Part shown: positions 1,920 through 44,066 of the stretch, one piece after another | Layout: each line of letters opens with the position of its first letter | Numbering within the stretch: position 1 is the stretch's first letter | DNA from: Bdellovibrionota bacterium | Lineage (GTDB): Bacteria > Bdellovibrionota_C > UBA2361 > CAKMMH01 | Assembly: GCA_050952645.1 (NCBI GenBank) | Contig: JBMNLI010000017.1 | Span: forward strand, 192,001-256,000 | DNA length: 64,000 nucleotides | Direction: 5' to 3' | Made by a program: the position numbers and the translations under genes | Notes under the pieces: model-generated | Told to the model about the DNA's origin: nothing | The model's input: only the letters and a program-made list of their open reading frames with translations | Database searches by the model: none

Positions 1920-3383
1920 ATGAATGTAGCTAGACAAGACGAATTTACCAACTCTAAAAAAAGTAAGTTTACGGAGTCTAGTAAACAACAAGTTAGCTCT
2001 AATCTAGTTAGAGTTCCGCCCCATTCCTATGAAGCAGAAGAGTCGGTGCTAGGTGGCATCTTAGTCGACAATTTTACTATTAACGCTGCGATGGAAATTT
2101 TAAAACCATCAGATTTTTATAAAAGAGCGCACTTCAAAATTTTTGAAGCTATGATTTCTCTTACTGAGAGAAGCGAACCGATTGATGCTATTACATTAAG
2201 CGAAGAGCTTAAAAGGTATAATGTGCTAGAGGAATGTGGCGGATTAGAAATGATCTCTAGGTTAGCTTCATCAGTTCCTAGCGCTGCAAACGTTGCTTAT
2301 TATTCAGATGTAGTAAAAAACTTTTCTATTAGAAGAGCTGCTATTCATGAAGCTAGTGAGGTTATAAATAATGCGTTTGATACTGAAAAAAATTTAGATG
2401 AATTTATAGATGAAACTGAACAAAGAATTTTATCTATTGCAGATGAAAAAACTGATAAGGCTTTTACGCATATTGGTGATATAGCGCAAGACGCTTTACA
2501 ACTAGTAGAAAGGTTGTATGATAAGAAAAAATCCGTTACTGGCGTTCCGTCTGGATTTAACAAACTTGATGATTTAACGGCAGGCTTTCAAAAATCTAGT
2601 TTATTTATTTTAGCTGCTCGTCCTGGCGTTGGTAAGACTGCTTTTGCTTTAACTATCGCACAAAATGTAGCATTAAGAGAAGAATTAGCGGTGGGAATTT
2701 TTTCTTTAGAGATGTCGAAAGAAGAGCTTTTTATGAGAATGTTAAGTTCAGAGGCGAGAGTTTCAAATTCAAAATTAAAAACTGGTAAATTTCCCGAATC
2801 GGATTTTCCAAAAATAGTCAATGCCGCAAGCAGATTAACCGACGCCCCTATTTATATAGATGATACGGGGGGTTTAACTATTACGGAGCTAAAAGCTAAA
2901 GCGAGAAGATTAGCTAGAGAAAAAAAACTAGGATTGATCATAGTAGATTATTTACAACTTATGAGAAGCCCGACTTACAAATATAGTAGAGAGCAAGAGA
3001 TAGCGGATATTTCACGTTCATTAAAGGGGCTTGCTAAGGAGCTTGATATACCAGTTATAGCGATTTCACAATTAAATCGTAGCGTAGAGGGAAGAGATGA
3101 AAAGCGCCCAAGGATTGCAGACTTAAGAGAGTCGGGAGCTATTGAACAAGATGCCGACATTATAGCGTTTGTATATAGAGATGAGATGTATAACCCCGAC
3201 ACTCCAGATAAGGGCATTGCAGAAATTATTTTAGGCAAACATCGCTCAGGTCCAACTGGCACTGCAAGGGTTGCTTTTTCGGGAGAGTATACTAGGTTTG
3301 ACCCTCTAGATGAGTCTGGAATAACGGAACAATTCGAGGCTCAAGATTACGAGCAAGATGATTTTGATATAGATTCTTTTTAA
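1920..3383 (+). CDS. dnaB: Replicative DNA helicase
   Basis: PPHSYEAEESVLG, AARPGVGKT, IIVDYLQLM, DLRESGAIEQDAD. Confidence 0.98.
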   Translation: MNVARQDEFTNSKKSKFTESSKQQVSSNLVRVPPHSYEAEESVLGGILVDNFTINAAMEILKPSDFYKRAHFKIFEAMISLTERSEPIDAITLSEELKRYNVLEECGGLEMISRLASSVPSAANVAYYSDVVKNFSIRRAAIHEASEVINNAFDTEKNLDEFIDETEQRILSIADEKTDKAFTHIGDIAQDALQLVERLYDKKKSVTGVPSGFNKLDDLTAGFQKSSLFILAARPGVGKTAFALTIAQNVALREELAVGIFSLEMSKEELFMRMLSSEARVSNSKLKTGKFPESDFPKIVNAASRLTDAPIYIDDTGGLTITELKAKARRLAREKKLGLIIVDYLQLMRSPTYKYSREQEIADISRSLKGLAKELDIPVIAISQLNRSVEGRDEKRPRIADLRESGAIEQDADIIAFVYRDEMYNPDTPDKGIAEIILGKHRSGPTGTARVAFSGEYTRFDPLDESGITEQFEAQDYEQDDFDIDSF

Positions 3384-3392
3384 TTAAAATCT

Positions 3393-3589
3393 GATTCTTT
3401 ATGTTTTAAGTTAGTTTAAAAGAAAATTGACTTTAGTAAAGAACTAGCTATAGTTTAAAGAAAAATTACAACTATATTTAAAGTAATTTATTTTATGTAA
3501 ATTTCTTTAAAGTCAACTTTCTTTTTGGGCCCCGTGGAGAGCGATACTAATTCTTAAGGTCTAAAACCCACCTTAAAACGTGAAGAACT
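3393..3589. mobile_element. MITE-like repeat, subfamily A
   Basis: Right end CCCACCTTAAAACGTGAAGAACT, degenerate left end, internal inverted repeat AAAAGAAAATTGACTTT/AAAGTCAACTTTCTTTT; matches the copies at 38686, 41760 and 53047. Confidence 0.8.
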
Positions 3590-3675
3590 AAATTTTTTCT
3601 TAAATTATTCCCCCTTCCAAACTCTAACATATTGAAATAACGAAACTATTTTTAAGAAAAATTTTGAGAAAAGGT

Positions 3676-3703
3676 TTGACTAATTATTTTAAAATGATAT
3701 ACT
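3676..3703 (+). promoter_or_regulatory. Sigma70 promoter of structured RNA unit 1
   Basis: TTGACT(3676-3681)-16 bp-TATACT(3698-3703), with TG at 3695-3696 (extended -10). Confidence 0.8.
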
Positions 3704-3710
3704 TTTTCTT

Positions 3711-4395
3711 TGTGGTTGAAAGCTTCATGTCAGCTAGCCATAGGGGGTGGGGGGAGAGCGAAGATAGGCAAAGTATTTACTTGAAGAGTGAACGTTGATG
3801 CCTAAGCGTAATCGCTAGCTAAAGTAAGCTCTTAGCTTGCTTTGGCTTATTTTCTGCTCTCTCCCCTAGTTTTAAAATAAATATAACAGCAACAGTAAAA
3901 CGTAGCTTAGGCTTAAAGCTTTAAGTTATTTATGTCATGGGTAGCTAGTAGCAGGTAGCTTGTGGTTTTTGCTCATCGGAGCCACAGACAGCTACTTTCT
4001 CTCGCGGCTACGGCTATTAAGTGTGTTTTACTGTTCTTTCACTCGCTTGACACAAAAGTGTCCAAGGGCGGAGGCGTTTGATGACGACTCCAAACGCCAA
4101 CCTTTGTGAGGGCGAGTGAAGAGGGAGGGGGAATGCATTCTGCGCAAAAGAAACACTACCATGGCATTTCTTCGCGTACCCCCTCCCTCGGCTTACTTTT
4201 ATAAGGTTTTTCCTTAAGGGTTTTTATCTTAAAGAAGGTTTTCTCTTAAGGGTTAAGTCTTAAGGTTTAAAATCGCATATAATGCGAAAATTGAAGATTT
4301 CGGAGCAATGATTTTGAAACAGCTAAGTTTAAAATAACGAAGTTTAAAATAGCGAAGTTCAAAGATGACGCTTCGAAATTCTTCTCCCATATTTT
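3711..4395 (+). ncRNA. Putative large structured ncRNA, unit 1 (unknown family)
   Basis: Stems 3711-3718/3735-3742, 3749-3759/3856-3866, 3891-3901/4025-4035, 4038-4048/4110-4120, 4121-4131/4179-4189; 3' hairpin about 4293-4384 then T-rich tail; no ORF. Confidence 0.65.
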
Positions 4396-4711
4396 TATAT
4401 TTTTACTTTTTCTACTTTTTTCATCTTTATACGTATTAGTACACATCCATATATCTTAATATATCTTTTATAATTTAACCTTTATAATTTACGCCTTACT
4501 CTTAGTAATTATCCTTTTTTAAAAAATATACTTCTAAAAATTCTAACATTAGCTTTAATCCTTAAAAATTATCTAAATCTTAAACTTTTCCTTGTTTTAC
4601 GTATAAAATTTAATTTTAACTTTATAACCTACTAAAAATAATTTAAGAAAAGCTTAAGACATAAAAGATAAAAAAATTTACAAATAATTTAAAAAAATTT
4701 TTCATAAACTA

Positions 4712-4739
4712 TTGACTTGATATCAAAAAGTGTTATATT
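4712..4739 (+). promoter_or_regulatory. Sigma70 promoter of structured RNA unit 2
   Basis: TTGACT(4712-4717)-16 bp-TATATT(4734-4739), TG at 4731-4732. Confidence 0.8.
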
Positions 4740-4745
4740 ACTTTT

Positions 4746-5511
4746 TCATTTAGTGACAACATCAGCAATATTTAATTGCTATAAGTATATAACGAAATAC
4801 GTAGCGACAAGTTGCTTTACAGAGTTCCTACTTGTTAGCTACGAGTTCCCATCACGAAAGAGGGCTAGGTCGTGCTAGTGCCACAATTGCGCGATCTTCT
4901 CCTTTGCTCTTTTTTAGAGCACTCTCTCTAGTGTGGGAAGCAAAGGTTTCGCCGAAGTGAAAGCTTGTTTCAGGCTCTTAAGTAGCGCCTGACTCTAAGA
5001 GTCTTACAAGTTTCACTTATCTTAGCATTTGCAAAGATTAGGGGGCTAGAGTTGGATAAAAAGCGAGAAATCGCACCTTCCTCCGCAGGCTCTAGCCCCC
5101 TACGGCGAAATCTTTAAATTAGATATAATAAAGGCTTAAACCCTTATAAGTCCCCCCTTAAAAGTTCGAAGAGATTCTATAGTAATCCGCCTAGGGGAGT
5201 CTATTCACTTTAAGGGTGGCAAACATAAAATCCTTGCTCTATGTTTTTGCTCTATATATCATTGCTTAGGTAAGCATTTTTTTTAGACGCACTTTTAGGA
5301 GCAAGGCAAAGGGGGGCGCAAGGAGGTTTCATCCTTTTTCCTCTGCGCGGCGCCCCCCCTCTTGGTTTATTTTTATAGCGTTTATTTTTATAGCGTTTTT
5401 TAAAAGGTTCTTCTCGTCTTAATGTTTAAAAACAATTAAGCGATGAGCAACTAAAAAAAGAGGACAACTTGTAAAGGGTTTCGGTAATTTACGAAGCCCT
5501 TTTCCTATTTT
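4746..5511 (+). ncRNA. Putative large structured ncRNA, unit 2 (unknown family)
   Basis: Hairpins 4800-4843 and 4846-4939; four-way junction closed by 4942-4954/5103-5115; stems 5232-5239/5299-5306 and 5311-5319/5350-5358; terminator-like hairpin about 5473-5511. Confidence 0.7.
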
Positions 5512-5682
5512 TAATTAAATTTTTAATTAAACTCGTTTCTTTAATCTTTTTTATTTTTCACATTTTAACCTAAACATTTTAACCTAAACTTTTCTCTTTT
5601 TACATATAAAATTTTTATTTTAATCGACAAACTCACTTAAAAAAATTAAAAAAATTACCTTGCACCCTTACTTACAAAAACA

Positions 5683-5710
5683 TTGACTACATACTCAAAA
5701 ATGTTATATT
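5683..5710 (+). promoter_or_regulatory. Sigma70 promoter of structured RNA unit 3
   Basis: TTGACT(5683-5688)-16 bp-TATATT(5705-5710), TG at 5702-5703. Confidence 0.8.
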
Positions 5711-5716
5711 CAATAT

Positions 5717-6046
5717 TATCGTTTATAGATGCCTTCCTTGCCAACTTGCAATTTAGGTATCTAGAAAAGTGCTTACATTTCACTCCCAATATGCAAACAA
5801 AAGTGAAAGAACATTACAATTAACCTTTTGGATCATTTCTAAAGCTCGTAATGACAAGTTTTTTTAATTAACCCTAAAAAAACTGCATGCACTTTTCAAT
5901 TACCCTTTAATTTTAACTAATTACTAAAGAGAGAAATTAGAAAAAGAAAAGGAAGGCTTTCCCATCTCTAAAAAGTTTTAACCTTGCACTCTTTCTTTTT
6001 TCTCTCTTAGGAGGTAAAAATAACAAAAGGCTTTTTGCTTTTTTTA
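5717..6046 (+). ncRNA. Putative structured ncRNA, unit 3 (AU-rich, unknown family)
   Basis: Stem 5726-5734/5755-5763; 5764-5772/5889-5897 enclosing three hairpins; 5927-5936/5999-6008; T-tract about 6038-6045. Confidence 0.55.
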
Positions 6047-6102
6047 TAAATAATATTTTAAAAAGTTTTTTGCAAAAAAAATAAAAATATTTTGCAAAAA
6101 AC

Positions 6103-6132
6103 TTGACTTGCTTTAAAAAAAGAGGTTAATAT
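6103..6132 (+). promoter_or_regulatory. Sigma70 promoter of structured RNA unit 4
   Basis: TTGACT(6103-6108); -10 less clear (TAATAT 6127-6132, 18-bp spacer); structure starts at 6139. Confidence 0.6.
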
Positions 6133-6138
6133 TGACCT

Positions 6139-7170
6139 TTGTTAGTTACTGAGACGTAGCTCACCCTACAATTTCTCATAGCTAACAATTTGCTCAATAC
6201 TTTAGCTAAGGAATTCCTTAAAGCTAGTGTCGAGCATGCTTTCGCCTTATAACAGAGAAATTTAGATATGCTTCTCGTTGAAACGTGTCTTCCTACAAAA
6301 TGCTACGTGCAGTAGGCATAGCAAATCTCTATAACATTTCCCTAGAGTTTGCTGTGGTTTCTTTGTTATGTTCAGGGAAGCGAGGAAGGTCGTCGAAAGT
6401 AGTTTAGCATTGGCTACTTTCTTAACCTTTACTTGCTTACCCTGAGGGCGAAAGTTAATTCTTGTTATTTTTAGTTTTGCAAACAACATTTTTTTTTAGC
6501 GTTCGCAATTAAAAATTGCAGTTAAAAAATCGCAGGTTAAAAAGTGTTATAAGGTATATTTATATTGGTGGTTTTAGCAAAGCACTATTTTAGAAAATAG
6601 CGATTATAAGGAAATAAAGAGATGCACTCTCCTTGGCTCCTACGCCCCTTTAGTTGATAAGGCTAACAAGCTGCAAGCCTTTCATTGGGGTAAAGCCTTT
6701 CACAAAATCAAAGGGGCGTAGGTGCTCTATTTGAGTTTACTCTTTTTCTTTTCTCGTTATTTACTATTATTATTGACGCCTGGCATCGATACATAAATAA
6801 TTATCTTGTCTATTATTTTAAGCGTCTTGCGTATTATTATTCGCATTTGCTAAAATACCACCTCTCGAGGCGGAGTGGAGGAACTTTTCTTTTCTAGCAT
6901 CTCTTATTTTCTACCCCTTGATGCTTAGAACCTCTTTGTGCGGGCAACGTGAATGTTTCGCACGGGCATTGCGCGTTGTGTTTCCCCACCACTCCACTCC
7001 GCCTCACTCTTTAACGCTTCTGTAAAAAAGGAAGCTATAAAGGTTCTTTAGAATGTTTTTATAGATGGTTTTTAAAAAATTATATATAATTTTTTCTATA
7101 AAAAGATTTTAAAGGTGGCAATAAAAAAGATTTAAAGGCTCGCCTTTAAAATCTTTTTCCCATTTTAATT
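6139..7170 (+). ncRNA. Putative large structured ncRNA, unit 4 (possibly two RNAs: 6139-6455 and 6567-7005)
   Basis: Hairpins 6139-6188 and 6191-6236; junction closed by 6238-6247/6446-6455; stems 6567-6581/6846-6862, 6639-6651/6710-6722 (13 bp perfect), 6867-6880/6992-7005 (14 bp perfect); terminator-like hairpin about 7123-7166. Confidence 0.7.
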
Positions 7171-7451: not shown

Positions 7452-8636
7452 ATGATAAGAGAAATTACTGAAAATATATATTCACTACGTGCTATAGATT
7501 GGAATGTAAGAGAATTCCATGGATACGAAACTAAAAGCGGTTCTACCTACAACTCATACTTTATAAAAGATAAGAAAAATGTGCTAATAGACTCTGTAAA
7601 ACATACATTTAAAGATACATTGTTAAATAATATATCTAGCGCGTTAGAAACTAGCAAGCTAGATTATATCGTTTGCAACCACGCAGAGCCAGACCACTCA
7701 AGTGCAATTAAGGATGTTATAAAAAAATATCCAAACGCTACTCTTATATGCAACCAAAGATGTAAAGATATTCTCTCTTTGTATTACAACACTACTGATT
7801 GGAAATTCCTAATTGTAAAAGATGGCGATACCATAAACTTAGGAGAAAATGAACTATATTTTTACGATACCCCAATGGTTCACTGGCCAGAATCTATGAT
7901 TACATACGTCCCTAATAAAAAACTCCTATTTTCCATGGATATTCTAGGACAACATTACGCCTCATCATTTATATTTGATTATGAAGAAAAAAAAGAAACT
8001 CTACTTTCTGAAGCAACGAAATATTATGCAAATATAGTTTTGCCCTACCCTAAACAAGTTTTAAATGCATTAGGAAAAATAAAAAAATTAGATGTCGAAA
8101 TAATCGCTAATAGCCACGGACTTATAATTAAAAAATATTTGCCTGAGATGCTCTCCTTATACGAAAATTTTGCTAATGGTATAAATAAAGAAAAAGCATT
8201 AGTAATTTACGATACAATGTGGGGAAGCACTGAAAATATAGCCTTTAGTTTAATAAGCGGCCTAAAAACTAATAAAGATTTAGAGATTAAAGTTTGCGAC
8301 CTAAAAACTACTCATAATACTATCGTTGCTAGCGAGGCAATAGATGCAAAATATATCTTAGTAGGCTCCCCTACCCTTAACTCAAATATCCTGCCTACGG
8401 TTGCTAGCACTCTTACTTACCTAGAGGGACTAAAACCATTAAATAAAACTTGCCTCTGCTTTGGCTCATATGGCTGGGCACCTGCATTTGCTAAGAAGAT
8501 AACCGAATATTTTGAAGCATTAAACTGGAATATATTTTCAGACCCTATAAGCGTTAAATACAAACCTACTAACGCTTTTTTAAATGATTGCTTTAATATT
8601 GGAAAAACTCTTAGCACTTATAATCAGCATCAATAA
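7452..8636 (+). CDS. fprA: Flavodiiron protein (FprA-type; metallo-beta-lactamase plus flavodoxin domains)
   Basis: GSTYNSY, NHAEPDHS, PMVHWPESM, YDTMWGST, FGSYGW. Confidence 0.92.
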   Translation: MIREITENIYSLRAIDWNVREFHGYETKSGSTYNSYFIKDKKNVLIDSVKHTFKDTLLNNISSALETSKLDYIVCNHAEPDHSSAIKDVIKKYPNATLICNQRCKDILSLYYNTTDWKFLIVKDGDTINLGENELYFYDTPMVHWPESMITYVPNKKLLFSMDILGQHYASSFIFDYEEKKETLLSEATKYYANIVLPYPKQVLNALGKIKKLDVEIIANSHGLIIKKYLPEMLSLYENFANGINKEKALVIYDTMWGSTENIAFSLISGLKTNKDLEIKVCDLKTTHNTIVASEAIDAKYILVGSPTLNSNILPTVASTLTYLEGLKPLNKTCLCFGSYGWAPAFAKKITEYFEALNWNIFSDPISVKYKPTNAFLNDCFNIGKTLSTYNQHQ

Positions 8637-18604: not shown

Positions 18605-18880
18605 GGTTCTTCACGTTTTAGGTGGGTTAGAGTCTATCTTCTAATTTAAATTGACAAAATTATTTTACAAAACTGTTGTTGTTTTATTAAAATAATAGTT
18701 AATTTTATTGGTAAAATAAATATTAGAGTTGTTAGGAAAAGTTATCCATAACTGATAGCTTGGCCCCAGCAATAAAAAGCTAAAGGTCAAGCTGTCAGGC
18801 TGTGGATAACTTTCACAAAGACTCCATTAAACAGAATGGCGTTTTGTTTCTCTAGGGGGCCATTTAAAACGTGAAGAGCT
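18605..18880. mobile_element. MITE-like repeat, subfamily B (DnaA-box hairpin)
   Basis: Ends GGTTCTTCACGTTTTA/TAAAACGTGAAGAGCT; near-identical to 47085-47350. Confidence 0.85.
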
Positions 18881-31527: not shown

Positions 31528-33978
31528 TTAATGAGTAGATAAAGAGACACCCTCATCTTTTTCAGGATAGTTTATTTTTCCATCATTATTATCATCTTCA
31601 TATAAAAATTTATCTCTTATTTCTCTTTCTTCTTGTAATTTCTCAAAAGCCTCTTTGCTATCTATACGCAAAGCCTCAAAAAGTGCCTCATCGGCATGAG
31701 AGATAGGCACTAACTCTAAATCTTTTCTTACAGTAGCTGGTATTTCTTCTATATTCTGCTCATTTTCTTTAGGAAAAAGTATCTTTTTAATTCCCCCCCT
31801 ATGAGCTGCTAGTGCTTTTTCTTTTAAACCACCAATAGCAAGGATATTTCCTCTAAGTGTAATCTCACCAGTCATCGCTACATTTTTATCTACTGGAATT
31901 CCCGTTAATGCAGAAACGATAGTAGTAGCGATAGTTACGCCCGCAGATGGACCATCTTTAGGGATCGCCCCTTCAGGAACATGCACATGGAGGTCTATTT
32001 TATCATAAAAATATTTCGGAAGCCCTAGCATTTCAGCTTTAGAACGAACGTAGCTTAGAGCTGCCTTTGCAGACTCTTGCATCACATCTCCTAATTTTCC
32101 TGTAATTAACAAACGTCCTTTTCCAGGCAAAACCGTAGTTTCAATCGCAAGGAGTTCTCCGCCTCTTTCAGTCCAAGCAAGCCCAGTGGTCATTCCCGTT
32201 TGGTGTTGTTCTTCATGTTTTCCGTAGCTATAAATAGGTTGCCCTAAATATTTATTTATATTTTCAGCCGATACTACTACTTTATGTTTTTTATTATTTT
32301 CTACTACCTCCATAGCGGCCTTTCTACAAAGCGCAGCTATGGCTCTTTCTAAACTTCTAACTCCAGCCTCTTTCGTGTATCGCCTAATAATTTCTACGTA
32401 AGCAGAATCTTCTATAGTAATATTTTCAGGTTTTAAACCGTTTTGTTCTAACTCTTTTTTGTATAAATATTTTTTAGCGATAACTAGTTTTTCAAGCTCA
32501 GTATAACCTGATAAGCTTAATATTTCCATTCTATCCATTAAAGGTTCTGGGATTTGATGGAGTGCATTCGCCGTGCAAACGAACATCACATTCGTTAGGT
32601 CGTATTCACAATCTAAATAGTGATCACTAAAATTAACATTTTGCTCAGGGTCTAAAACCTCTAAAAGTGCAGCCGATGGGTCGCCTCTAAAGTCTGCCGA
32701 CATTTTATCTATTTCATCTAACAAAAATACTGGATTACTTTTCTTAGCTTTTTTTATAGATTGTATTATTTTCCCTGGCATCGCTCCGATGTAAGTTCTT
32801 CTATGTCCTCTAATTTCTGCCTCATCTCTTACACCACCTAAGGAAATACGCACAAACTCTCTATTAACGGCTCTTGCTATTGAGCGTCCTATCGATGTTT
32901 TACCAACCCCTGGAGGTCCTACTAGACACAAGATTGGTCCTTTTATTTTTCCTACTAATTTTTGAACTGCTAAATATTCTAAAATTCTTTCTTTTACTTT
33001 TTCTAAGCCATAATGTTCTTCTTCTAATACATCCCTTGCATGATCCATATCTATATCATCTACAGATATTTCATTCCAAGGAAGAGATAGCATCCAATCT
33101 ACGTAATTTCTTACGACCGTTGCTTCTGCCGACATAGGAGACATCATCTTTAATTTTCTTATTTCTTTTTCAGTTTTTTCACGAGCCTCATCTGGCATAT
33201 CTTTTTCTTTAAGCTTATCTTCAAGTTCTTGAACCTCGTTTCTAAAATCATCTTTATCTCCGAGTTCTTTTTGGATAGCACGCATTTGCTCATTTAAGTA
33301 ATACTCTTTTTGCGTCTTTTCCATTTGTTTTTTTACTCTATTTCGTATTCTTTTTTCTACTTGCAATATTTCTATTTCAGATTTCATAAAATCTAAAACT
33401 TTTTCGAGTCTTTCTTTTGGATCTACAGTTTCTAAGAGCGATTGCCTATCTTCAGGCTTTATATTTAATTGAATGCCGATAGTATCTGCAAGTTTAGAAG
33501 GGTCTTCTATATTTTTAACTTGCATTATCATTTCAGGACTTACTTTTTTCCCAAGATTAACGTAATTTTCAAACGATACATTTACGGAACGCATCAACGC
33601 CTTTAATTCAGTCGTAGTTTCAAACTCTGCACTTAACTCTTCTACATCTACGAGCATACAATCTTCATTATCGTGATGTTTTAATATTCTAGCTCTAGCT
33701 TTTCCTTCGATTAAAACTTTTATTGGGCCATCTGCAAGTCTAATTAGTTGAACGACTTCACCTAAAGTGCCAATCTCAAAAATATCTTCTTGAGTTGGTG
33801 AGCTAGTTCTTGCATCTTTTTGAGCAGCTAGCATTATTAGCTTTCCTTGATTTTGTGCTTCTTCTATGGCTCTAACGCTCTTTTCTCGCCCTACAAATAG
33901 TGGCACTACTTGAGCAGGAAAAACTGCTGGTTCTCTTAATGCTAACAACGGAAGAGGATTCTCAATTTTTAATTTCAT
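31528..33978 (-). CDS. lon: Lon protease
   Basis: [35 protein letters not shown]. Confidence 0.98.
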
Positions 33979-42169: not shown

Positions 42170-44066
42170 ATAGGGTAGAGCGAGGGCTATACCCTCTCCC
42201 TCCCGTCGCACCGTACGTACGGGTCTCGTATACGGCGCTCCATTAATATAATATCAAGTAATACTCAGGTAATACGTCAAAGGGTCGATTAAACCAATTC
42301 GTTCCTTTGTTTTACGCCCCAATATTTTAGGGCTTAATGCATAATTCACTACGTACCACGAACTGCGTCTATACCAGCCGAGTCTGCTGTTAGCAACCTT
42401 ATAGATTTCTTCATTTCTAAAATTGCAACCAAGCATTCGGTTCAATTTCTTAAGATTTAGATAGATTCGTCTCGGCAATTTCCACTGTTTAAGTATTATA
42501 ACCCTCACTTTGTGTCTAAGCCATTGACCATATTTATCTATAAAAGTCTTAAGAGTTCCTATCTTATAATAGTTTATCCAACCTTTAATTAACCAGCTTA
42601 GCTGTTGAAATGTCGAACCTAACGTTCGTGCCATTGCCTTCCGTCTACAAAGAATTTCTCTAGTTTTATCATAGAGTTTTCGTTTGCGATCTTCAGCAGG
42701 TTTACATTTCCAAGTTTTATACCCACTCTTCCAGTAGGTAAAGCCTAAGAAAGTGCTTTCCGTCGGCCTAGAGATTTTACTCTTACTTGAATTAATTTTA
42801 AGTCGTAGCTTACGCTCCAACCAACTCGCAACGGACTTCATTACTCTATTAGCAGCCTTTTCACTTCTAACAAATATATTACAGTCATCGGCATATCTAA
42901 CAAACTTAAGTCCTCTTGCTTCCAGTTCCTTGTCGAGTCTTATCAAGGTATATGTTAGATAATACTGGGGATAATGGACCTCCTTGCGGAACTCCTTTCT
43001 CACTTACAGTAAACAATCCATCTTCCATTATACCAGCTCTTAAGAACTGTCTTATCAATCGTAGTGTCTTCGCATCTTTGATGCGTTCCCTGATTATCGA
43101 AATTAATTTGTCGTGATTAACAGTATCAAAATATTTCTCTATGTCTAGGTCTATAACCCAATCATAGCCTCTTTTCAAGTACTCAAGAGTTCTATATACT
43201 GCTAGATGGCAATTCCTTCTAGGTCTAAAGCCATAGCTACTATTACTAAAATACTTTTCGTATCCGCGTGCTAGTATTTGCGCTACCGCTTGTTGAATTA
43301 CCCTATCTACTACTGTAGGTATTCCTAAAGGTCTCATCTTACCATTAGCTTTAGGTATATACACTCTCTTAACTGGACTCGGCTTATAATTCCCTTCACG
43401 TATCTGAGATTTTATCTCTTCTCTGTGAACGGCAAAATAGTCTTCAAGCTCATCTACTGGCATATCATCTACACCAGATGCACCTTTATTTCGCTTAAAC
43501 AGCCTTTATAGCCTCATCTATATTTTTGTCTGATATAATTAGTTCAATCAATTCCACCTGTTGCTCCTCCCTCTGTTTGTAAAGCTACTAGAAAACACCC
43601 CCTCTATCTTCTGCCCCCACAGGTTACGTTCCTGTTTGTTAGGCATATCCTTCAATTTCGGACTCTTCTAGCCTTGCTTACAGTGATTCACAATATATTA
43701 ACGTTCAACCCTTCCTTGAGTGGTGTCTCAAGTACTATGGTATCAACTGACTTCCAGATATAAGCTTTATATCGCACGTGCATAGCACGCTATCTGGACC
43801 TCCCGGGGTAAGGCATAGTTCTTTCACCAGACAACCTCCAGATTTACTCGTTTGGTTTTACGTTTGTCTTTAGGGCTTCGGTTTGTAGCGCAACCTCACC
43901 CACCATTTAGCCTTGTATCTGGTTTCTGTTCGTAGGCTCCTTGGTTTTGATCCGCCACTTCCTTCACTCTAACATTACTGCTTCGAGCTTGTGGCATCAC
44001 TACACTTGGTGACAACTACCCGTGACGGGACTTTCACCCGCTAGAACTATGTCGTGCCCGGCACAC
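42170..44066 (-). mobile_element. Group II intron, class C (IIC), 1897 nt
   Basis: 5' GTGTG; domain V GAGCGCCGTATACGAGACCCGTACGTACGGTG with CGC triad; 3' end CTACCCTAT; boundaries fixed by the intact neighbouring repeat (GGGC|TTCGTG). Confidence 0.95.
42254..43557 (-). CDS. ltrA: Intron-encoded reverse transcriptase/maturase, no endonuclease domain; two apparent +1 frameshifts (about 43498 and 42937)
   Basis: GGAGG RBS and GTG at 43557; NKGASGVD, RPLGIP, SYGFRP, PQGGPLSP, RYADD, FLGF, GWINYY. Confidence 0.92.

Follow-up and report, generated by a model that had tools for sequence, protein, structure and literature searches.

The stretch of Bdellovibrionota DNA analysed here (the window, 64,000 nt of contig JBMNLI010000017.1) contains a gap of 4,068 bases between a gene which we take, by recognition of its sequence and not from a family scan, to encode a DnaB-type replicative helicase, and a gene encoding an FprA-type flavodiiron protein. 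No credible long ORF was found in the gap (one 75-codon frame lies on the - strand), nor any ORF for a transposase, integrase or reverse transcriptase, and the RNase P, SRP and tmRNA genes are located elsewhere, as is ruvB, which lies on contig C12. The gap is occupied by four promoter-led folded units arranged in tandem, all on the + strand (Table 1). In a genome of ~31% GC, five of the six folded blocks reach 40-51% GC and alternate with AT-rich spacers of 18-24% GC; unit 3 is the exception at 30%, and unit GC otherwise exceeds that of RNase P RNA (32%) and tmRNA (35%). Long intergenic regions of high GC are recognised as a signature of structured RNAs (PMC8632094).

Table 1. Features between and including the genes that flank the gap (window coordinates; z, folding z-score of a unit taken as a transcript)
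Feature	Position	Strand	Remarks
dnaB-type replicative helicase gene (presumed)	1920..3383	+	left flank
promoter-like site, unit 1	3676..3703	+	TTGACT
unit 1, putative ~490-nt RNA, 46% GC	3709..4195	+	z -7.5
promoter-like site, unit 2	4712..4739	+	sigma-70-type: TTGACT, 16 nt, TATATT
unit 2, putative ~640-nt non-coding RNA, 42% GC	4745..5385	+	z -8.4
single-stranded UCUCCUUU (predicted), unit 2	4898..4905	+	complement of common Shine-Dalgarno AAAGGA/AAGGAG
perfect four-way junction domain (predicted)	4942..5115	+	central domain of unit 2
3' hairpin (5311-5358, GC-rich) and T-rich tail	5311..5400	+	15-nt tandem repeat; putative 3' end of unit 2
promoter-like site, unit 3	5683..5710	+	TTGACT
unit 3, putative ~335-nt RNA, 30% GC	5716..6050	+	z -6.0
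promoter-like site, unit 4	6103..6132	+	TTGACT, 18 nt, TAATAT
unit 4, one or more putative RNAs	6138..7010	+	z -11.5
fprA-type flavodiiron protein gene	7452..8636	+	right flank; metallo-beta-lactamase-like and flavodoxin domains

Several other elements lie in or near the gap. Window positions 3410-3600 hold a dispersed repeat of ~190 bp that occurs in dozens of copies genome-wide, five of them in tandem at C9:43005-43775. Many of its matches break near position 140-148, and several copies are adjoined by GC-rich blocks of ~570 nt that include group II intron domains, which suggests that the repeat is a target of the intron; the window itself contains group II intron domains (RF00029, RF02001) at 42170-43984 (- strand). 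An AT-rich dispersed repeat of ~80 bp, with roughly 20 copies in the genome, sits at 4575-4660 and 5577-5656, just upstream of the promoter-like sites of units 2 and 3. The conserved 216-aa ORF that precedes dnaB (1260-1910) has no Pfam match and, judged by eye, may adopt an NYN/LabA-type fold, while a long intergenic hairpin at 18738-18813 reached a z-score of about -9 in a crude scan.

Each of the four TTGACT promoter-like sites directly precedes a folded block on the same strand. Transcription of unit 2 would probably proceed from its own site, which carries TG before the second hexamer and would place the start near 4745. The number of promoter-like sites in the gap (13, with 11.1 expected in shuffles) is by itself not above chance, and aligning the promoter regions yielded no information outside the hexamers. 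When a strict promoter pattern, derived from these gap sites themselves, was applied to the genome, the two most stable 300-nt downstream stretches among its 34 matches were those of units 1 and 2 (-104.2 and -93.8; next best -82.6). A relaxed scan gave 11 matches, with units 1, 2 and 4 being three of the four most stable and a CRISPR-like array the other. Two different CRISPR-like repeat arrays are present in the genome (C16, near 47000 and near 32700), and no spacer of theirs matched the units. We infer that each of the four units is an RNA gene with a transcript of its own.

The predicted fold of unit 2 is multi-domain, with paired 5' and 3' ends, and its middle domain is the perfect four-way junction to which the original prediction had drawn attention. 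That part of the prediction was borne out in full: all eight strands were recovered, with zero unpaired bases between the four helices. The closing stem (4942-4954/5103-5115) comprises 13 pairs, 12 of them Watson-Crick and one G.U, and the arms that it encloses, 4955-5018 (64 nt), 5019-5038 (20 nt) and 5039-5102 (64 nt), render the domain symmetric in length. The first arm contains no interruption other than a bulge and a 3x1 loop, and it does not neighbour the 6x7 loop of the third arm, which is capped by a GAAA loop. The minimum free energy of 4942-5115 is -82.7 kcal/mol (z -8.62), and none of 200 dinucleotide shuffles was as stable. In the full 641-nt unit, the pairs at the joints have probabilities of 0.96, 0.88, 0.81 and 0.86. 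All four are present at the same time in 584 of 1000 samples, the designation of the junction as perfect being valid for about 58% of the predicted ensemble; the four helices, counted from two pairs in from the joint, are present in 997 of 1000 samples.

Such a structure is rarely obtained by chance. No perfect four-way junction appeared in 150 shuffles of unit 2, and only 2 of 704 shuffle multiloops were perfect in any form. A scan of the whole contig (C17; 403,525 bases), with 1,989 candidates from the two strands, returned this junction in either orientation and just one further, weak junction (-40.9). In intergenic regions of the remaining contigs, none of the 2,670 candidates checked (all 2,239 in one orientation and 431 of 1,820 in the other) was confirmed. 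Contigs of the independent runs X2, X3, X5, X6 and X10 match the DNA of the locus almost letter for letter, and the DNA is thus not an assembly artefact. The sequencing runs that carry locus DNA derive from digesters, bioreactors, landfill and wastewater, and no RNA dataset was listed among them.

The junction of unit 2 has counterparts in its neighbours. A tight junction is defined here as one with at most 3 unpaired bases and helices of at least 4 pairs. In unit 1 the pair 3766/3848 is predicted to close a four-way junction in which 2 bases are unpaired. Unit 4, which consists of the folded blocks 6138-6450, 6625-6735 and 6865-7010, has one in its first block, closed by 6261/6357, with 3 unpaired bases. 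Unit 3 forms a loose four-way junction with 15 unpaired bases, and its 3' end is a hairpin followed by a T-run. In pairwise alignment the units do not align with one another; the best + strand score between them (z 3.0) is due to the 3' hairpin and T-tail that units 1 and 2 have in common, and the bases that cross the junctions, as well as the lengths of the arms, vary from unit to unit. Among the 43 predicted hairpin loops only one is of the GNRA/UNCG type, and a search for kissing loops of at least 6 pairs gave three self-complementary segments and no pair between different loops.

A further counterpart lies at the same place in the only other genome of the genus (G001), whose FprA and DnaB are 72% and 88% identical to those described here. 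There, the gap contains two inserted genes (VTC domain, DUF4956) and a single GC-rich unit of ~420 nt directly before fprA, which sits behind a TTGACA promoter-like site with the same spacing as that of unit 4 (z -8.7). This unit begins with a perfect four-way junction with arms of 42, 48 and 36 nt, found in 631 of 1000 samples, and it is the most stable of 5 promoter-plus-structure matches in 1,782,492 bases, about three quarters of that genome. It does not align with any of the four units of the present genome, in contrast to RNase P RNA, for which the two genomes give a good alignment. In both of them fprA follows the last unit at a distance of 270-440 bases, with the same orientation. A genome of the same family (G002) has a gap of 128 bases without such an element, and in another relative (G003) the gap is interrupted by a contig end and contains REP-like repeats. 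A tight four-way junction is thus predicted in four of five promoter-led units (three of the four here and the G001 unit; 0, 0, 2 and 3 unpaired bases), and shuffles yielded one in 0/60, 1/60, 2/100, 2/100 and 7/100 cases (0-7%). On these predictions, the junction is a recurring trait of the elements at the dnaB-fprA locus, not a one-off.

The searches returned no homolog of these elements. In Rfam scans of the window and of the gap (4,227 families), nothing matched the gap at the gathering score, and nothing relevant was among five matches at E up to 5. DNA searches found no homolog in 40 relatives, where the best other match was of 28 nt (E 4e-4), or in 123 other genomes of the class, with two candidates scored per genome; for the G001 unit, none was found in 90 other genomes. 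Neither 50,697 phage nor 72,556 plasmid records matched the units, and of two patterns run on viral contigs one gave 0 matches and the other 11 without extended likeness, while the 5 matches of a pattern run on genome contigs did not extend. An FprA-anchored scan of metagenomes revealed no close kin, its best 80 loci being just 30-49% identical. A single-sequence covariance model of the junction matched itself alone in 89 kb and 91 genomes and picked up neither the other units nor the junction of G001. The literature search returned nothing on the locus or the lineage; subscription journals lay mostly outside its scope, and supplementary motif lists could still hold an entry.

Individual RNA classes were considered separately. 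For 6S RNA (RF00013), a rod of ~190 nt with a central bubble, there was no model match, and the units are branched and longer; none of the 41 genomes searched in the order, this one included, gave a 6S RNA, a result not specific to the locus (the control search found it in 5 of 14 reference genomes). A type I toxin mRNA fits poorly, as no hydrophobic ORF of 18-50 residues with a sequestered Shine-Dalgarno sequence is common to the units. Riboswitches built on four-way junctions, such as NiCo and yybP-ykoY, likewise fit poorly, given that no Rfam aptamer matched and unit 2 lies 2 kb from the next gene.

Strain variation at the locus was compared with the predicted pairing. Eight runs provided 36 distinct substitutions, of which five were set aside, four because they lie in spacers and one because it lies just beyond unit 1. 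The 31 that were scored, which come from contigs of depth 2-5 and may include errors, comprise 16 at unpaired positions, 4 that keep a pair and 11 that break one, where 13.3 +/- 2.2 breaks were expected (P 0.21). The breaks include pairs of 0.99-1.0 probability, at 5157 and 5215, and in the junction domain only position 4964 varies, with its pair retained as U.G. The original prediction had seen in the junction strong evidence of selection on RNA or ssDNA structure. The fold does exceed chance and the tight junction does recur in four of five units that cannot be aligned, but the word strong has to be given up, since variants break pairs about as often as random changes would. Selection on structure is suggested by recurrence and GC content, not by variation. 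As to the kind of molecule, RNA is favoured through the promoter-like sites, while folding is neutral: z-scores are alike on both strands and single out neither, although G.U counts and minimum free energy favour the + strand in most units, as they do in the RNase P and tmRNA controls.

The junction is likely the central domain of a stand-alone non-coding RNA of ~640 nt. Our preferred reading, to which a probability of about 0.45 is assigned, is that the unit 2 RNA would serve as a rigid four-helix scaffold recognised by a protein through its shape rather than its sequence. In perfect junctions, with the hairpin ribozyme (PMC8216279) as an example, the four helices stack as two coaxial pairs, and such stacking would fix the geometry of the two 64-nt arms; the RNA would bind a protein that recognises nucleic acids by their structure, or act as a decoy for it. 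Sequence is conserved in catalytic RNAs, riboswitches and seed-based sRNAs, whereas the five units have in common no catalytic core, no ligand pocket and no seed sequence; a protein-binding or decoy function therefore fits best. The recurrence of a tight junction in units that cannot be aligned points to selection on structure. The array may have originated when one RNA gene arrived at the dnaB-fprA gap in this genus and was locally duplicated to four units, the sequence then drifting past alignment with the long helices, the raised GC and the tight four-way junction retained. Common descent of the units would follow from position and architecture only, and the units are probably fast-evolving, stand-alone RNAs, probably protein-binding. 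A more far-reaching version, for which the odds appear long, holds that such RNA genes inherit architecture only: amplified in tandem and led by promoters, they would turn over their sequence completely within a genus and keep the tight junction, acting as Holliday-junction-shaped decoys for the recombination or replication factors of the cell itself, or for those of phages or prey.

That the units are large base-pairing regulatory RNAs, whose helices and junctions expose C/U-rich strands that block ribosome-binding sites without Hfq, is an unlikely but substantial competitor. UCUCCUU, which complements the common Shine-Dalgarno hexamers of the genome, is predicted to be unpaired (0.78-0.98) in unit 2, in block 4b (6625-6735) and in the G001 unit, and Hfq was not found in any of four genomes. 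Of 1,246 start regions, 50 can pair perfectly over at least 8 bases with strand 4892-4910 of unit 2 (shuffled mean 18, maximum 43) and 23 with block 4b (shuffled mean 2.5, maximum 15), the best matches being 11-12 nt long; the best-matching genes include some whose products resemble a flagellar rod protein, EF-Tu and flagellin. The motif was, however, chosen after the fact (at a background of 0.154 per kb, ~0.6 occurrences are expected and 3 were seen), it is missing from units 1 and 3 and block 4a, and any anti-Shine-Dalgarno motif matches many genes. Of the five other segments tested, four did not exceed shuffles and one only equalled the shuffle maximum, and base pairing of this kind leaves the junction unexplained. 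Doubtful to a similar degree is a present or past role at the DNA level, or a relic, with the structures being single-stranded ends of a decayed mobile element, or hairpins that accumulated by fold-back mutation where insertions are frequent, and with selection now weak. The same junction forms on both strands: the reverse strand of 4942-5115 gives its mirror image (-75.1, z -7.31), and with DNA parameters the 174-nt junction has an energy of -46.3 on either strand. Inserts in the gap differ by relative (the VTC/DUF4956 genes of G001, the REP-like repeats of G003, the dispersed 190-bp repeat here), strain variants do not significantly spare pairs, and long added hairpins occur in the RNase P RNA of this genome as well. 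Against this reading, the genome contains no second copy of the units, the gap has no mobile-element ORF, and phage and plasmid records gave no match; every unit begins a few bases behind a promoter-like site on its own strand, and AT-biased drift would not yield a GC content above that of RNase P RNA and tmRNA.

It is quite improbable that the units are cis-acting leaders or mRNAs of mini-ORFs, that is, elements that regulate the fprA operon in the manner of riboswitches, or type I toxin-like messages whose ribosome-binding sites are concealed. The position of the last unit upstream of fprA in both genomes would agree with a leader. Unit 1 contains GGAGG followed by ATG and a polar frame of 12 codons within a hairpin, beside a motif, GGAGGCGT..GACTC (4070-4090), that is common with a second folded locus. 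Two more promoter-like sites and terminator-like hairpins, however, intervene between unit 2 and fprA, G002 possesses the same operon without a leader, no Rfam riboswitch was matched, and the units do not share any small ORF that has a ribosome-binding site. Least credible of all is a junction acting as the scaffold of a hairpin-class self-cleaving ribozyme, a comparison made in the original prediction. The hairpin ribozyme carries the Rfam numbers RF00173, RF04190 and RF04191, and the hammerhead core and loop B motifs were used as search patterns; neither motif was found, and RF04190 matched nowhere in the genome at E up to 10. The likeness is limited to the (here predicted) four-way helical junction that natural hairpin ribozymes possess; these also have loops A and B on adjacent arms with the invariant G8, A38, G+1 and C25 (PMC8216279). 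The junction of unit 2 has no docking loops A/B and no such core, and it is encoded in chromosomal DNA rather than in a circular RNA, so that the comparison does not hold.

Among known systems, the closest are the large orphan RNAs OLE, ROOL and GOLLD (PMC12286853) and the raiA motif RNA, which are alike in their length of several hundred bases, long helices, multi-way junctions, lack of an ORF and likely own promoter. OLE, ROOL and GOLLD show wide conservation and covarying pairs, and they have kissing loops as well as A-minor bridges, whereas the units described here have no alignable homolog, no kissing loops and no tetraloop enrichment, and form a tandem of four unlike members. Covariance models of these four RNAs gave no match, the best large-RNA match being GEBRO with 16.8 bits against a cut-off of 284.7. 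C/U-rich anti-Shine-Dalgarno strands are known from Listeria LhrC1-4 and staphylococcal RNAIII. Further examples are the sibling sRNAs of Neisseria (PMC5362039) and the mycobacterial 6C RNA (PMC6486639). The present units resemble such siblings in their tandem layout, in promoter-like sites of their own, in the lack of a detected Hfq and, for three blocks, in a predicted exposed anti-Shine-Dalgarno-like motif, but they are much longer than most of them, lack the motif in three blocks and, unlike the siblings, do not resemble one another. The merRNA of Bdellovibrio bacteriovorus (PMC3627812) is a lineage-restricted RNA of 445 nt without an ORF and is a proposed sponge; it contains a c-di-GMP riboswitch, and none was detected here by Rfam scans.

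Other structured RNA loci of the two genomes are of interest in their own right. The second folded locus (C17:339500-340943, outside the window; L132:14190-14574 in G001) has kept a TTGACT promoter in both species, while its GC-rich folded RNA or RNAs cannot be aligned between them except for the motif GGAGGCGT..GACTC, which occurs once more in the present genome, in unit 1, before the 12-codon frame. It is missing from two genomes of the sister genus. Its copy in the present genome contains several AGGAGG motifs, two of which stand before an ATG whose frame ends at a stop within 2-4 codons; together with the presence of CsrA in four of four genomes, this makes a CsrA-sponge or ribosome-decoy reading of that locus possible. 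RNase P RNA (C7:130421-130922 in the present genome) has 502 nt and 32% GC, with long hairpins added in comparison to G001, and the tmRNA of this genome has 431 nt.

The predicted junction is real in the sequence and probably functional, and it belongs to an undescribed and genus-restricted array of putative RNA genes. The distribution of such units is narrow, with one genus and two genomes. Two species with flanking proteins 72-88% identical carry, at the same spot, a four-way-junction element that cannot be aligned between them and that would have been amplified to four in one. The symmetric 174-nt junction of unit 2 is small and self-contained enough for structure probing, cryo-EM and pull-down. 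If architecture-only inheritance were true, such RNAs would be invisible to covariation screens. If expressed, the units would constitute an orphan RNA set that homology-based RNA discovery misses, and would offer a natural test of selection acting on RNA shape alone.
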